DNA of 64,000 nt from Escherichia coli (GTDB taxonomy: Bacteria; Pseudomonadota; Gammaproteobacteria; Enterobacterales; Enterobacteriaceae), in NCBI RefSeq assembly GCF_051903065.1, contig NZ_CP178438.1, one strand, 5' to 3'. Positions 1,729 through 64,000 of this stretch are shown here, piece after piece (within the stretch, counting starts at the first letter, position 1; every line of letters starts with the position of its first letter). A program made the position numbers and the translations under genes. Under the pieces are notes generated by a model. That model was not told the DNA's origin. It saw nothing but the letters and a program-made list of their open reading frames with translations, and searched no databases.

Positions 1729-3114
1729 ATGGCAGATAACAAACCAGAGCTACAGCGTGGGCTGGAAGCTCGACATATCGAACTCATCGCCCTGGGGGGC
1801 ACCATTGGCGTCGGCCTGTTTATGGGGGCCGCCAGTACCCTGAAATGGGCCGGGCCATCCGTATTGTTGGCCTATATCATCGCCGGGCTGTTCGTCTTTT
1901 TCATCATGCGTTCAATGGGCGAAATGTTGTTCCTCGAACCGGTTACCGGTTCGTTCGCCGTTTATGCGCATCGTTATATGAGCCCGTTCTTTGGCTATCT
2001 CACCGCCTGGTCTTACTGGTTTATGTGGATGGCGGTGGGGATCTCTGAAATCACCGCCATTGGCGTTTATGTCCAGTTCTGGTTCCCGGAGATGGCGCAG
2101 TGGATACCCGCATTGATCGCAGTGGCGCTGGTGGCGTTGGCGAATCTGGCGGCGGTGCGGTTGTACGGCGAAATCGAGTTCTGGTTCGCGATGATCAAAG
2201 TCACCACGATTATCGTGATGATTGTCATTGGCCTGGGCGTGATTTTCTTTGGCTTTGGCAATGGCGGGCAGTCGATTGGTTTTAGCAATCTCACAGAGCA
2301 TGGCGGTTTCTTTGCGGGTGGCTGGAAAGGGTTCCTGACCGCGCTGTGTATTGTGGTGGCGTCCTACCAGGGCGTGGAGCTGATTGGCATTACTGCCGGT
2401 GAAGCGAAGAATCCGCAGGTGACGCTGCGCAGTGCCGTAGGCAAGGTGCTGTGGCGGATCCTGATTTTCTACGTAGGCGCGATTTTCGTTATCGTCACCA
2501 TCTTCCCGTGGAATGAAATAGGCAGCAACGGCAGCCCGTTCGTACTGACTTTTGCCAAAATCGGTATTACCGCAGCGGCGGGCATTATCAACTTTGTGGT
2601 GCTGACGGCTGCGCTCTCTGGCTGTAACAGCGGCATGTACAGTTGCGGACGTATGCTCTATGCACTGGCGAAAAACCGTCAGTTACCGGCGGCGATGGCG
2701 AAAGTTTCCCGTCACGGCGTACCAGTTGCGGGTGTGGCAGTATCTATTGCTATTCTGCTAATTGGCTCATGCCTGAACTACATCATTCCCAATCCGCAGC
2801 GTGTGTTTGTCTACGTCTACAGTGCCAGCGTGCTTCCGGGGATGGTGCCATGGTTTGTGATATTGATAAGCCAGCTGCGTTTTCGGCGTGCACATAAAGC
2901 GGCGATTGCCAGCCATCCGTTCCGCTCAATCCTGTTCCCGTGGGCCAACTACGTAACAATGGCATTCCTGATTTGCGTTTTGATCGGCATGTACTTTAAT
3001 GAAGATACGCGTATGTCGCTGTTTGTTGGCATCATCTTTATGCTGGCGGTGACGGCGATTTATAAAGTTTTTGGCCTTAATCGCCACGGGAAAGCGCATA
3101 AACTGGAGGAATAA
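1729..3114 (+). CDS. yifK: APC-family amino-acid permease, 461 aa
   Basis: Long ORF with about 12 predicted TM segments; matches YifK by length and position between wecG and the tRNA cluster. Confidence 0.85.
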
Positions 3115-3166
3115 GCAGCAAAACGCACAAACCGTAACCAAACGCGCAATTTATTTAAAAAGGGAC

Positions 3167-3195
3167 TAGACAGAGGGGGGGGAAGTCCGTATTAT
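3167..3195 (+). promoter_or_regulatory. Candidate sigma70 promoter of the argX-hisR-leuT-proM tRNA operon
   Basis: TAGACA (3167-3172), 17-bp spacer, TATTAT (3190-3195); A/T-rich tract upstream; tRNA-Arg begins about 22 bp downstream. Confidence 0.45.
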
Positions 3196-3216
3196 CCACC
3201 CCCGCAACGGCGCTAA

Positions 3217-3293
<77 letters not shown>

Positions 3294-3350
3294 TTTAGTC
3301 CCGGCGCTTGAGCTGCGGTGGTAGTAATACCGCGTAACAAGATTTGTAGT

Positions 3351-3427
3351 GGTGGCTATAGCTCAGTTGGTAGAGCCCTGGATTGTGATTCCAGTTGTCG
3401 TGGGTTCGAATCCCATTAGCCACCCCA
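3351..3427 (+). tRNA. hisR: tRNA-His (anticodon GUG), with the extra 5' G(-1)
   Basis: GGTGGCTATAGCTCAGTTGGTAGAGC...CCCATTAGCCACCCCA; anticodon loop region TTGTGAT. Confidence 0.95.
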
Positions 3428-3447
3428 TTATTAGAAGTTGTGACAAT

Positions 3448-3534
3448 GCGAAGGTGGCGGAATTGGTAGACGCGCTAGCTTCAGGTGTTAGTGTCCTTAC
3501 GGACGTGGGGGTTCAAGTCCCCCCCCTCGCACCA
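3448..3534 (+). tRNA. leuT: tRNA-Leu (anticodon CAG), long variable arm
   Basis: 87-nt class II tRNA GCGAAGGTGGCGGAATTGGTAGACGCG...CCCCCCCTCGCACCA. Confidence 0.95.
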
Positions 3535-3576
3535 CGACTTTAAAGAATTGAACTAAAAATTCAAAAAGCAGTATTT

Positions 3577-3653
3577 CGGCGAGTAGCGCAGCTTGGTAGC
3601 GCAACTGGTTTGGGACCAGTGGGTCGGAGGTTCGAATCCTCTCTCGCCGACCA
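3577..3653 (+). tRNA. proM: tRNA-Pro (anticodon UGG)
   Basis: CGGCGAGTAGCGCAGCTTGGTAGCGC...TCTCTCGCCGACCA; anticodon loop TTTGGGA. Confidence 0.95.
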
Positions 3654-7282: not shown

Positions 7283-7489
7283 GTAGATGCTCATTCCATC
7301 TCTTATGTTCGCCTTAGTGCCTCATAAACTCCGGAATGACGCAGAGCCGTTTACGGTGCTTATCGTCCACTGACAGATGTCGCTTATGCCTCATCAGACA
7401 CCATGGACACAACGTTGAGTGAAGCACCCACTTGTTGTCATACAGACCTGTTTTAACGCCTGCTCCGTAGTAAGAGCAGGCGTTTTTTT
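7283..7489 (+). ncRNA. glmZ: Small RNA GlmZ (activator of glmS translation), about 207 nt including its intrinsic terminator
   Basis: No ORF; sequence GTAGATGCTCATTCCATCTCTTATGTTCGCC... matches GlmZ as I recall it; located in the aslA-hemY spacer; ends in hairpin aacgcctgctc/gagcaggcgtt plus T7; CATAAT -10 hexamer at 7271-7276. Confidence 0.8.
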
Positions 7490-36865: not shown

Positions 36866-36940
36866 TCGTTCTTTATTTGGTCAGTTGTCAACCTGATACT
36901 TCGCTACAATGGATACTCGTTAATCAAAGAGTTTTCCATT

Positions 36941-37840
36941 GTGGCGCTACTTATCATCACCACGATTTTGTGGGCCTTCTCCTTTAGTTTTTATGGCGAG
37001 TACCTTGCGGGGCACGTCGATAGCTATTTTGCGGTGCTGGTGCGCGTTGGCCTGGCGGCACTCGTTTTTCTGCCGTTTCTGCGTACCCGTGGCAATAGCC
37101 TGAAAACAGTAGGCCTGTATATGCTGGTGGGCGCGATGCAGCTCGGCGTGATGTATATGCTGAGTTTCCGCGCTTATCTCTACCTGACGGTTTCCGAACT
37201 GCTGCTGTTCACCGTACTGACGCCGCTCTACATCACGCTGATTTATGACATCATGAGTAAACGCCGTCTGCGCTGGGGATATGCTTTTAGTGCCTTGTTG
37301 GCGGTGATTGGTGCCGGGATTATTCGCTATGATCAGGTCACCGACCATTTCTGGACTGGCTTGTTGCTGGTGCAACTCTCCAATATCACTTTTGCCATCG
37401 GCATGGTGGGTTACAAACGCCTGATGGAAACTCGCCCGATGCCGCAGCATAACGCCTTTGCGTGGTTCTATCTTGGCGCGTTCCTGGTGGCGGTAATTGC
37501 ATGGTTCTTGCTGGGAAATGCGCAGAAAATGCCGCAAACCACGTTGCAATGGGGCATTCTGGTGTTTCTTGGCGTGGTGGCTTCCGGGATTGGCTACTTT
37601 ATGTGGAACTACGGCGCGACGCAGGTGGACGCCGGAACGCTGGGAATTATGAATAATATGCACGTTCCGGCAGGGCTGCTGGTAAACCTGGCTATCTGGC
37701 ACCAACAGCCGCACTGGCCAACGTTTATTACAGGCGCGCTGGTGATCCTGGCCTCACTGTGGGTGCATCGTAAGTGGGTCGCTCCGCGCTCTTCACAAAC
37801 GGCAGATGATCGCAGGCGTGATTGCGCGCTGAGCGAATAA
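36941..37840 (+). CDS. yigM: DMT/EamA-family membrane transporter YigM (biotin uptake, BioP), 299 aa, GTG start
   Basis: GTG at 36941; 10-TM hydrophobic product; 3' end overlaps the metR 3' end. Confidence 0.8.
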
Positions 37841-38681
37841 ACGCTTCTGTAATCGGCTGACGCTGCTCGCCATCGCGCACGGCGGCGTACAGTCGGCTCC
37901 ACAAGCCTTCGCCCAGGGTTTTGGTCACCACCAGACCCTGGCGCTCAAAACTCTCTACTACCCAATGCGGCAGGGCGGCAATACCCATCCGCGCGGCAAC
38001 CATCTGAATCAACAATAAGGTGTTATCGACGCTTTTCAGTGACGGGCTGACGCCTGCCGGCTGAAGAAAATGCCGCCAGACATCCAGTCGGCTACGCTGC
38101 ACCGGATAAATCAACAGCGTCTCGCTGGCGAGATCTTCCGGTGTAATACGCGTTTTTGCCGCCAATGGATGGTCAGGTGCTAACACCAGGCGTACTTCAT
38201 AGTCGAACATCGACGAATAATGCAGGCCACTGCGCGGCAGAATATCGGAGGTCATCACCAGATCCAGCTCGCCCTGTTGCAACGCGGGCTGCGGGTCAAA
38301 CGTCACGCCCGATTTAAAATCCATCTCTACCTGCGGCCAGTTCTTATGGAAATTTTCTAACGCGGGCGTCAGCCACTGAATACAGCTATGGCACTCAATG
38401 GCAATGCGCAGACGTGTCTGCTGCGGTTCATTGCAGGCTTGCAGTGCCTGGCTGATTTGCGGCAGCACCTGGTTTGCCAGTTGCAACAGGATTTCTCCCT
38501 GCGGTGTAAAGCGTAGCGGCTGGCTCTTACGCACAAAGAGCCGGAAGCCAAGGCGTTGTTCCAGATCGCTAAACTGGTGAGACAGGGCGGATTGCGTCTG
38601 ATGCAACGTCGCCGCAGCGGCTGCGAGCGAGCCGCAGTTCCGCAACGCTTGTAGCGTTTTCAGGTGTTTTACTTCGATCAT
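37728..38681 (-). CDS. metR: LysR-type transcriptional regulator MetR, 317 aa
   Basis: N-terminal HTH ([23 protein letters not shown]); divergent from metE. Confidence 0.9.
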
Positions 38682-38742
38682 GAAAGTCCTTCACTTCGGC
38701 ATGAATAATTTGCGCTTGAGGAATATACAGTAACCGCCAATT

Positions 38743-45487: not shown

Positions 45488-47730
<2,243 letters not shown>

Positions 47731-61197: not shown

Positions 61198-62739
<1,542 letters not shown>

Positions 62740-62807
62740 CCTTAAAGAAGCGTACTTTGCAGTGCTCACACAGATTGTCTGATGAAAATGAGCAGTAAAA
62801 CCTCTAC

Positions 62808-62884
<77 letters not shown>

Positions 62885-62926
62885 AATTTGCACGGCAAAT
62901 TTGAAGAGGTTTTAACTACATGTTAT

Positions 62927-63002
62927 GGGGCTATAGCTCAGCTGGGAGAGCGCCTGCTTTGCACGCAGGAGGTCTGCGGTTCGATCCCGCATAGCTCCAC
63001 CA
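62927..63002 (+). tRNA. alaT: Spacer tRNA-Ala (anticodon UGC)
   Basis: GGGGCTATAGCTCAGCTGGGAGAGCGCCTGCTTTGCACGCAGGAGG...CATAGCTCCACCA. Confidence 0.95.
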
Positions 63003-63176
63003 TCTCTGTAGTGATTAAATAAAAAATACTTCAGAGTGTACCTGCAAAGGTTCACTGCGAAGTTTTGCTCTTTAAAAATCTGGATCAAGCTGAAAATTGA
63101 AACACTGAACAACGAGAGTTGTTCGTGAGTCTCTCAAATTTTCGCAACTCTGAAGTGAAACATCTTCGGGTTGTGA

Positions 63177-64000
63177 GGTTAAGCGACTAAGCGTACACGG
63201 TGGATGCCCTGGCAGTCAGAGGCGATGAAGGACGTGCTAATCTGCGATAAGCGTCGGTAAGGTGATATGAACCGTTATAACCGGCGATTTCCGAATGGGG
63301 AAACCCAGTGTGTTTCGACACACTATCATTAACTGAATCCATAGGTTAATGAGGCGAACCGGGGGAACTGAAACATCTAAGTACCCCGAGGAAAAGAAAT
63401 CAACCGAGATTCCCCCAGTAGCGGCGAGCGAACGGGGAGGAGCCCAGAGCCTGAATCAGTGTGTGTGTTAGTGGAAGCGTCTGGAAAGGCGCGCGATACA
63501 GGGTGACAGCCCCGTACACAAAAATGCACATGCTGTGAGCTCGATGAGTAGGGCGGGACACGTGGTATCCTGTCTGAATATGGGGGGACCATCCTCCAAG
63601 GCTAAATACTCCTGACTGACCGATAGTGAACCAGTACCGTGAGGGAAAGGCGAAAAGAACCCCGGCGAGGGGAGTGAAAAAGAACCTGAAACCGTGTACG
63701 TACAAGCAGTGGGAGCCTCTTTTATGGGGTGACTGCGTACCTTTTGTATAATGGGTCAGCGACTTATATTCTGTAGCAAGGTTAACCGAATAGGGGAGCC
63801 GAAGGGAAACCGAGTCTTAACTGGGCGTTAAGTTGCAGGGTATAGACCCGAAACCCGGTGATCTAGCCATGGGCAGGTTGAAGGTTGGGTAACACTAACT
63901 GGAGGACCGAACCGACTAATGTTGAAAAATTAGCGGATGACTTGTGGCTGGGGGTGAAAGGCCAATCAAACCGGGAGATAGCTGGTTCTCCCCGAAAGCT
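63177..64000 (+). rRNA. rrlA: 23S ribosomal RNA, 5' part (continues beyond the window)
   Basis: Begins GGTTAAGCGACTAAGCGTACACGGTGGATGCCCTGGCAGTCAGAGGCGATGAAGGACG. Confidence 0.95.

Follow-up and report, generated by a model that had tools for sequence, protein, structure and literature searches.

In Escherichia coli the biotin transporter gene yigM (bioP) and the gene of the LysR-type regulator MetR converge and end inside one another, sharing 113 bp. With a probability of roughly 0.8, we consider this to be a genuine and ancient overlap of two real genes, whose tails are unselected antisense shadows of the partner and which is tolerated as a by-product, not a regulatory device. The locus was analysed within a window of 64,000 nucleotides, the whole stretch of DNA at hand, and all positions below refer to it unless another record is named.

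Geometry and identity of yigM and metR

The two genes and their ends are placed as follows.

36941..37840, + strand: yigM/bioP coding sequence, biotin transporter, 299 aa, GTG start, TAA stop at 37838-37840 (ORF list, RefSeq, EamA/TIGR00950)
37728..38681, - strand: metR coding sequence, LysR-type regulator MetR, 317 aa, TAA stop at 37730-37728 (ORF list, RefSeq, NCBIfam)
37728..37840, both strands: tail-to-tail overlap of 113 bp, with no indels across Enterobacteriaceae
37838..37840, + strand: yigM stop TAA, antisense of the conserved MetR Phe281-Ile282 codons TTT ATT
37728..37730, - strand: metR stop TAA, antisense of YigM Ile263-Thr264 (ATT ACA)

Each gene brings into the overlap 36 sense codons, its stop codon and 2 nt of another codon; the figure of 37 codons per gene, given in an earlier note on this DNA, is correct if the stop codon is counted. 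The two frames are phased such that codon position 1 of yigM faces position 1 of metR, position 2 faces position 3, and position 3 faces position 2.

YigM is matched by Pfam EamA and by TIGR00950. MetR is matched by the Pfam domains HTH_1 and LysR_substrate and, over residues 1-317 of 317, by the NCBIfam MetR equivalog NF011950; its residues 1-92 are identical to PDB 5FO5. The Pfam domains end at residue 275 of YigM and at residue 288 of MetR. Judged by these matches, the identities of both proteins are firm. The biotin transport function of YigM/BioP is described by Côté et al. 2016 (PMC5120140).

The same layout of the two genes is given by RefSeq/PGAP for an E. coli strain that is 100% identical over the 1821-nt query 36900-38720 (bioP 1542-2441, metR 2329-3282 in that record), and K-12 MG1655 (NC_000913.3) is annotated alike, with bioP at 4011076-4011975 and metR at 4011863-4012816. 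The locus was found in 5423 of 5426 complete E. coli genomes. With the ORF list, the sequence and RefSeq including K-12 in agreement, the convergent overlap that the earlier note placed at 37728-37840 is real. It is also already known, being annotated by RefSeq in K-12 and other strains and noted by Côté et al. 2016 (PMC5120140).

Conservation of the overlap across Enterobacterales

We took the locus from species-representative genomes of 80 other Enterobacteriaceae species, with YigM identities of 81-100%, and recomputed both stops. The overlap measures 113 bp in 70 of these species, 116 bp in seven, 98 bp in two and 68 bp in one. In the 116-bp cases the metR stop is shifted by one codon; in the 98-bp cases MetR has 312 aa, and in the 68-bp case YigM has 284 aa. 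The 600-bp alignment around the junction of the two genes contains zero indels.

ORF lengths are correspondingly stable: YigM has 299 aa in 79/80 species and MetR 317 or 318 aa in 77/80, the 318-aa variants arising because a second in-frame stop directly follows the metR stop. Homologues of 299 aa also predominate among the protein database matches of YigM (Salmonella, Citrobacter, Klebsiella, Kosakonia and others). For Salmonella MetR a length of 276 aa is reported, but the MetR ORF of S. enterica subsp. arizonae (L029) has 317 aa.

Beyond the Enterobacteriaceae, the overlap spans 113 bp in Yersinia frederiksenii, 116 bp in Nissabacter, 98 bp in Dickeya zeae and a Dickeya-like contig, and 95 bp in Pectobacterium brasiliense and Sodalis. 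The YigM end stays fixed at residue 299 in Yersinia, Nissabacter, Dickeya, Pectobacterium and Sodalis. The MetR end varies by taxon, giving proteins of 311, 312, 317 or 318 aa.

Extended convergent overlaps were called rare in the earlier note, in agreement with the survey of Pallejà et al. [quoted passage not shown] That survey asks of a genuine long convergent overlap that both partners be real and characterised, that gene lengths match those of orthologues, and that the overlap exceed 60 bp and be kept beyond very close species. Here, MetR matches its equivalog over 1-317/317 and YigM matches TIGR00950/EamA; lengths agree across 80 Enterobacteriaceae species and Yersinia, with no genome-specific 3' extension; and 95-116 bp are retained from Enterobacteriaceae to Sodalis.

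A frameshift or a missed stop could in principle have lengthened one of the two ORFs. Most long overlaps in databases are indeed misannotated, including 124 of 178 convergent ones (PMC2478687), and the terminal residues of the present proteins are unconserved. Such an artefact is nonetheless scarcely believable: the ORF ends recur, free of indels, in 5423 complete E. coli genomes and in some 90 further species, a convergent overlap is independent of start-codon choice, and the 317 positions of the NCBIfam MetR model are matched end to end. On the comparative data, this explanation can be considered refuted.

The related suggestion that the YigM C-terminus is mis-assigned stands in one sense and falls in another. 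As an error of annotation or sequencing it fails, the same stop being used in 79/80 species and in Yersinia, Nissabacter, Dickeya, Pectobacterium and Sodalis. In substance it holds: alignment of the orthologues shows that the 299-aa length is kept but that the last ~16 residues are themselves unconserved, being under little or no amino-acid constraint and gone from Serratia, Gibbsiella, Erwinia and some Salmonella.

Constraint switches from one gene to the other at a short junction

Column entropy was calculated per codon position from 80/81 aligned sequences. Between 37501 and 37774, variation falls on the yigM wobble position, which is metR position 2 (entropy 1.04-1.05). Between 37791 and 38100, it falls on the metR wobble position, which is yigM position 2 (0.83-0.94). 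At 37775-37789 the entropy is near 0 at all three codon positions within Enterobacteriaceae. The overlap can be divided accordingly.

37790..37837, + strand: YigM passenger tail, aa 284-299, antisense shadow of conserved MetR 282-298
37731..37775, - strand: MetR passenger tail, aa 303-317, antisense shadow of the last membrane helix of YigM (aa 263-279)
37775..37789, both strands: junction where constraint switches, TGGGTCGCTCCGCGC, coding for YigM W279-R283 and MetR A299-T303, nearly invariant within Enterobacteriaceae

In the YigM tail, yigM position 2 (the metR wobble) has an entropy of 0.83, versus 0.94 in the region that codes for MetR only. In the MetR tail, metR position 2 (the yigM wobble) has an entropy of 1.05, versus 1.04 upstream.

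As a control we used shadows, that is, untranslated antisense frames of the same phase taken from the flanking single-gene regions. Mean pairwise amino-acid identity is 0.54 in the MetR tail (303-317) versus 0.55 in its matched untranslated shadow, and 0.69 in the YigM tail (284-299) versus 0.60 in its own; the protein cores reach 0.94 (MetR) and 0.88 (YigM). Both tails thus behave essentially like untranslated antisense sequence. A weak constraint on the YigM tail is possible, as it is slightly more conserved than its shadow. By entropy and amino-acid identity, the pattern that dual coding under purifying selection would leave, with little variation at the synonymous sites of either frame, was found at about five codons, those at 37775-37789; in the rest of the overlap one of the two frames evolves as a shadow would.

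Outside the Enterobacteriaceae, the only junction residues that remain fixed are YigM W279 (37775-37777) and MetR A299 and R301 (37779-37787). The functionally needed parts of YigM and MetR therefore abut and do not overlap. The invariance of the 15 nt within Enterobacteriaceae could also reflect an element acting at the nucleotide level.

Further observations fit this picture. Distant YigM homologues (30-57% identity) are mostly 280-295 aa long, and their alignment to E. coli YigM ends around residue 270-286; Neisseria meningitidis MetR (PDB 4AB5) aligns as far as E. coli residue 296. Truncated natural variants of YigM, of 284 or 285 aa, occur in Salmonella and a relative.

Relatives in which the two genes are separated

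In three taxa, yigM and metR do not overlap.

Serratia marcescens: YigM of 286 aa, 36-bp spacer, MetR of 314 aa
Gibbsiella: YigM of 286 aa, 327-bp spacer of REP-like palindromes, MetR of 314 aa
Erwinia toletana: YigM of 287 aa, a hairpin and an inserted DUF1456 gene, MetR of 312 aa

Chania is also separated, judged from protein length. The Gibbsiella spacer (L091:2862-3188) consists of tandem REP-like palindromic units (CCCTCTCCCTGTGGGAGAGGGTTAGGGTGAGGG...), and insertion of such elements may have been a route by which the overlap was resolved in the Serratia group. In Erwinia toletana (L088:3410-3886) the DUF1456 gene lies on the metR strand between yigM and metR, making this a second, independent separation.

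In Serratia, Gibbsiella and Erwinia, YigM is conserved through ...SLWVH(R/K)(R/K)W and MetR through ...HAC(D/Q)HLPFVRDA(A/S/G)R; the tails past these conserved ends are unrelated to those of E. coli. What E. coli translates as tails can still be read there in the untranslated frames. Opposite the MetR core, a 'QTADDRRR'-like sequence can be read in Serratia and Erwinia; opposite the YigM helix, Serratia shows 'DAPT..SP' and Erwinia 'YAPT..SP'. Because the E. coli tail motifs persist untranslated in these genera, they are nothing but shadows of the partner gene. At the site of Phe281-Ile282, MetR of Erwinia reads Phe-Val, and its shadow frame contains no stop there.

In Serratia and Gibbsiella the junction, ~11 bp of it, is present twice: one copy ends YigM (WVAP) and the other ends MetR (ARP). 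In Serratia the two copies form a short imperfect direct repeat, TGGGTGGCGCCG / GGGCGTGCCGCG.

The spacers of the non-overlapping relatives hold stable, GC-rich hairpins, with z-scores of -3.3 and -3.65 in Erwinia and of about -2 in Serratia. These Erwinia and Serratia hairpins carry no U-tract, and the terminator scan makes no call on them.

Are the tail frames held open by selection?

We simulated the overlap with the partner protein fixed and its synonymous codons resampled, and scored whether the passenger frame stayed open. It does so with a probability of about 0.6-0.9 (~0.6 in E. coli; per species, 0.86 for YigM and 0.57 for MetR). Because an open frame is this probable, the long read-on of each gene into the other is unsurprising.

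Under this synonymous-shuffle model the YigM tail frame is open in 80/81 species versus 69 expected, and the MetR tail frame in 79/81 versus 46 expected, the 81 species not being independent samples. The whole of the MetR excess traces to one site, YigM Val268, which must be GTG or GTA for the MetR frame to remain open. This codon (37742-37744) is GTG in 78/81 Enterobacteriaceae, as it is in Serratia, Erwinia and Gibbsiella; the wobble positions of neighbouring Val codons are saturated, with entropies of ~1.7. Because GTG is also kept where there is no overlap, its conservation is not explained by the open MetR frame. The scarcity of premature stops could mean selection on tail length, but even weak selection of this kind is unproven.

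These data bear on the proposal that both tails are functional protein segments, the overlap being a truly dual-coding region selected in both frames. The very stable ORF lengths, the scarcity of stops relative to the shuffle model and the slight excess of conservation in the YigM tail over its shadow would all fit such selection. So would the loss of YigM function in the Keio metR deletion, but that deletion reportedly removes YigM from residue 270 onwards, including half of the last membrane helix, and is uninformative on residues 284-299. The variation itself argues the other way: it is concentrated at each tail's own second codon positions and proceeds at the rate of the partner's synonymous sites, and the MetR tail varies no less than an untranslated shadow does. 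In Serratia, Gibbsiella and Erwinia, moreover, unrelated sequence takes the place of the tails, some Salmonella, Citrobacter and Pluralibacter have shortened ones, and the Val268 codon is retained irrespective of overlap. We consider functional selection on both tails quite improbable.

Transcription across the junction

A consensus scan of the junction detected no promoter-like or terminator-like site beyond chance. No GC-rich hairpin flanked by A/T tracts, the form of a bidirectional intrinsic terminator, was found at the 3' ends in a scan of the same region, and no known RNA family is matched in the overlap by Rfam. An 11-nt inverted repeat, 37779-89/37826-36, lies within the overlap. As a conserved hairpin or terminator we rejected it: its folding scores no better than shuffled sequence (z of -0.87 and -0.85 on the two strands), and natural variation breaks its pairs (C-A in 12 cases at one pair, A-C in 21 at another, and one double change).

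Supplementary file 2 of Adams et al. 2021 lists a Rho termination region on the + strand that peaks inside yigM.

about 37569 (K-12 4011704), + strand: peak of the Rho termination region, Rho score 5.07, p = 1.3e-12, converted via the K-12 bioP coordinates; the position is coarse, as the score uses 800-nt windows in which an intragenic site and one just past the stop inside metR are indistinguishable

Across this region, reads in Adams et al. 2021 go from 98 to 21 without bicyclomycin (BCM) and from 300 to 326 with it. This shows that Rho normally keeps yigM-sense transcription from extending antisense over metR. There is no metR entry in the 3'-end (Term-seq) or Rho (BCM) tables of that study.

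One could suppose that the two genes interfere in cis, in an excludon-like reciprocal coupling of metR and yigM through their complementary 3' ends or through collisions of RNA polymerase. With neither spacer nor intrinsic terminator, each transcript must enter the other gene, and when Rho is inhibited the yigM-sense read-through antisense to metR increases ~5-fold. The arrangement is retained in several families. Biotin synthesis consumes SAM, and this makes a physiological link between the two genes conceivable. The junction itself speaks against this supposition: it holds no conserved RNA structure or promoter, and its sole candidate hairpin is not significant and is broken by variation. 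Antisense RNA over metR is limited by Rho, which normally ends the transcript of yigM, and the published tables are silent on a metR 3' end or Rho region. Serratia, Gibbsiella and Erwinia manage without overlap. A literature search on yigM/metR antisense or overlap found no report of such regulation, only Côté et al. 2016. Interference as the reason for the arrangement is therefore unlikely, and we infer that the overlap has no regulatory role.

The earlier note had gone further, in that the overlap was said to imply transcriptional interference or mutual antisense regulation. Nothing found here supports this: the junction is devoid of conserved RNA structure, promoter or terminator, and such expression data as were found concern the yigM strand, where transcription is ended by Rho.

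It is highly improbable, in particular, that the overlap is kept for the sake of a coupling, through convergent transcription, between the methionine/SAM regulator and the uptake of biotin. Were this true, relief from MetJ repression would drive strong metR transcription into yigM, Rho-limited yigM transcription would run antisense into metR, and the two would tune each other, linking the supply of SAM, used in biotin synthesis, to the import of biotin. The rarity of premature stops in the tails would then mean that ribosomes are needed to cover the overlap and shield it from Rho.

Proposed origin of the overlap

We now return to the reading that we prefer, of an ancient overlap tolerated as a by-product. 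The functional ends of the two proteins would abut at ~37775-37790, YigM being conserved to ~Trp279-Pro282 and MetR to ~Arg301-Pro302. Past this junction each frame would run antisense through the conserved end of its partner to the first in-frame stop. The result would be two translated tails, YigM 284-299 and MetR 303-317, whose sequence is set by the codons of the other gene and on which selection acts little or not at all. With no terminator between yigM and metR, each transcript must end inside the other gene, and the yigM-strand transcript would be ended by Rho. The overlap itself is most probably the tolerated by-product of a spacer that was lost or never present.

The overlapping state, with the same phase and the same yigM stop, is found in Enterobacteriaceae, Pectobacteriaceae, Sodalis and three genera of Yersiniaceae. 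From this distribution we infer the direction of change: the overlap would have arisen before the split of Enterobacteriaceae, Pectobacteriaceae and Yersiniaceae, and would have been resolved later in the Serratia group and in Erwinia. A single ancient origin followed by two resolutions through insertion at the junction is the most parsimonious course. The reverse direction, recurrent deletion between the short imperfect direct repeat at the junction copies of Serratia and Gibbsiella, is possible.

As a source on the origin of the gene adjacency we also considered YigM-like proteins of ~51% identity (L084, L085) and set them aside. They are not adjacent to metR, are probably paralogues or from other loci, and are uninformative on this point.

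Atypical records and other features of the window

In E. coli Z135-6 (NZ_CP159632.1; L002:2542-4361) the junction is lost, and bioP and metR are annotated as 3'-truncated pseudogenes. Both 3' ends have been replaced by foreign DNA, and a hypothetical ORF of 636 bp lies between the two genes.

A record titled Chryseobacterium sp. 18061 (L056, CACSKA010000013.1) carries a typical Enterobacteriaceae yigM-metR locus, with YigM 83% and MetR 91% identical to the E. coli proteins; contamination or a wrong label on the assembly is the probable cause. In the Dickeya-like Logan contig SRR11696187_62 (L083:556-1455), YigM is out of frame for ~40 residues, aa ~205-245 resembling the E. coli +1 frame. A pair of indels that compensate for one another, likely errors of assembly, would account for this; at its 3' junction the contig is intact.

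Elsewhere in the window, a full-length Rfam match to the small RNA 'Erse' (RF02757; 318 bits versus a threshold of 138 bits) is found at 45842-46093 on the + strand, downstream of the metE region. Landmarks to be expected in this part of an E. coli genome are a cluster of four tRNAs at 3217-3650, the GlmZ sRNA at 7283-7489 and, at 61198-64000, the first portion of an rRNA operon. The latter comprises the 16S gene, two spacer tRNAs and the 23S gene in its 5' part, and a StyR-44 match lies at 63070-63169.

Discussion

The object described here is the K-12 bioP(yigM)/metR overlap (NC_000913.3; PMC5120140): the locus and the relative coordinates are the same, and there is no difference in the object. 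What we add is its evolutionary anatomy, namely the passenger tails, the junction and the taxa in which the overlap was resolved, together with the link to a published Rho region.

Its closest parallels are the conserved long convergent overlaps of Rogozin et al. 2002, as cited by Pallejà et al. 2008 (PMC2478687). Those too are tail-to-tail, longer than 60 bp and formed by characterised genes; their lengths agree with orthologues and do not rely on start-codon prediction; and here as there, a spacer or stop codons were most likely lost and the gene was lengthened at its 3' end as far as the following stop. Compared with the cases of Pallejà et al. 2008 (PMC2478687), the yigM-metR overlap is kept across several Enterobacterales families, and its constraint has been resolved codon by codon, leaving a functional overlap of almost zero.

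Excludons and overlapping convergent transcription units (review PMC7154746) are alike in that the transcripts of convergent genes must overlap at their 3' ends. A long antisense transcript, reciprocal expression or RNase III processing would be the mark of such a system; at yigM-metR, read-through is limited by Rho. The E. coli O157:H7 genes laoB and asa share with our locus protein coding on both strands of the same DNA; they are whole new ORFs antisense within an older gene and claimed to be selected (PMC5810103, PMC6294744), unlike the unconstrained tails of old genes seen here.

The arrangement has a practical consequence, in that a deletion or tag placed at the 3' end of either metR or bioP strikes its partner as well. 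According to Côté et al. 2016 (PMC5120140), the metR mutant of the Keio collection is at the same time mutant in bioP, and the Keio yigM deletion, being of the same design, should remove MetR residues 288-317.

A new biological question would arise only if regulation dependent on the overlap were shown. Altogether, the yigM-metR overlap is deeply conserved yet mechanistically ordinary, and the locus is a clean textbook case: long convergent overlaps can endure over very long times and cost the cell almost nothing.
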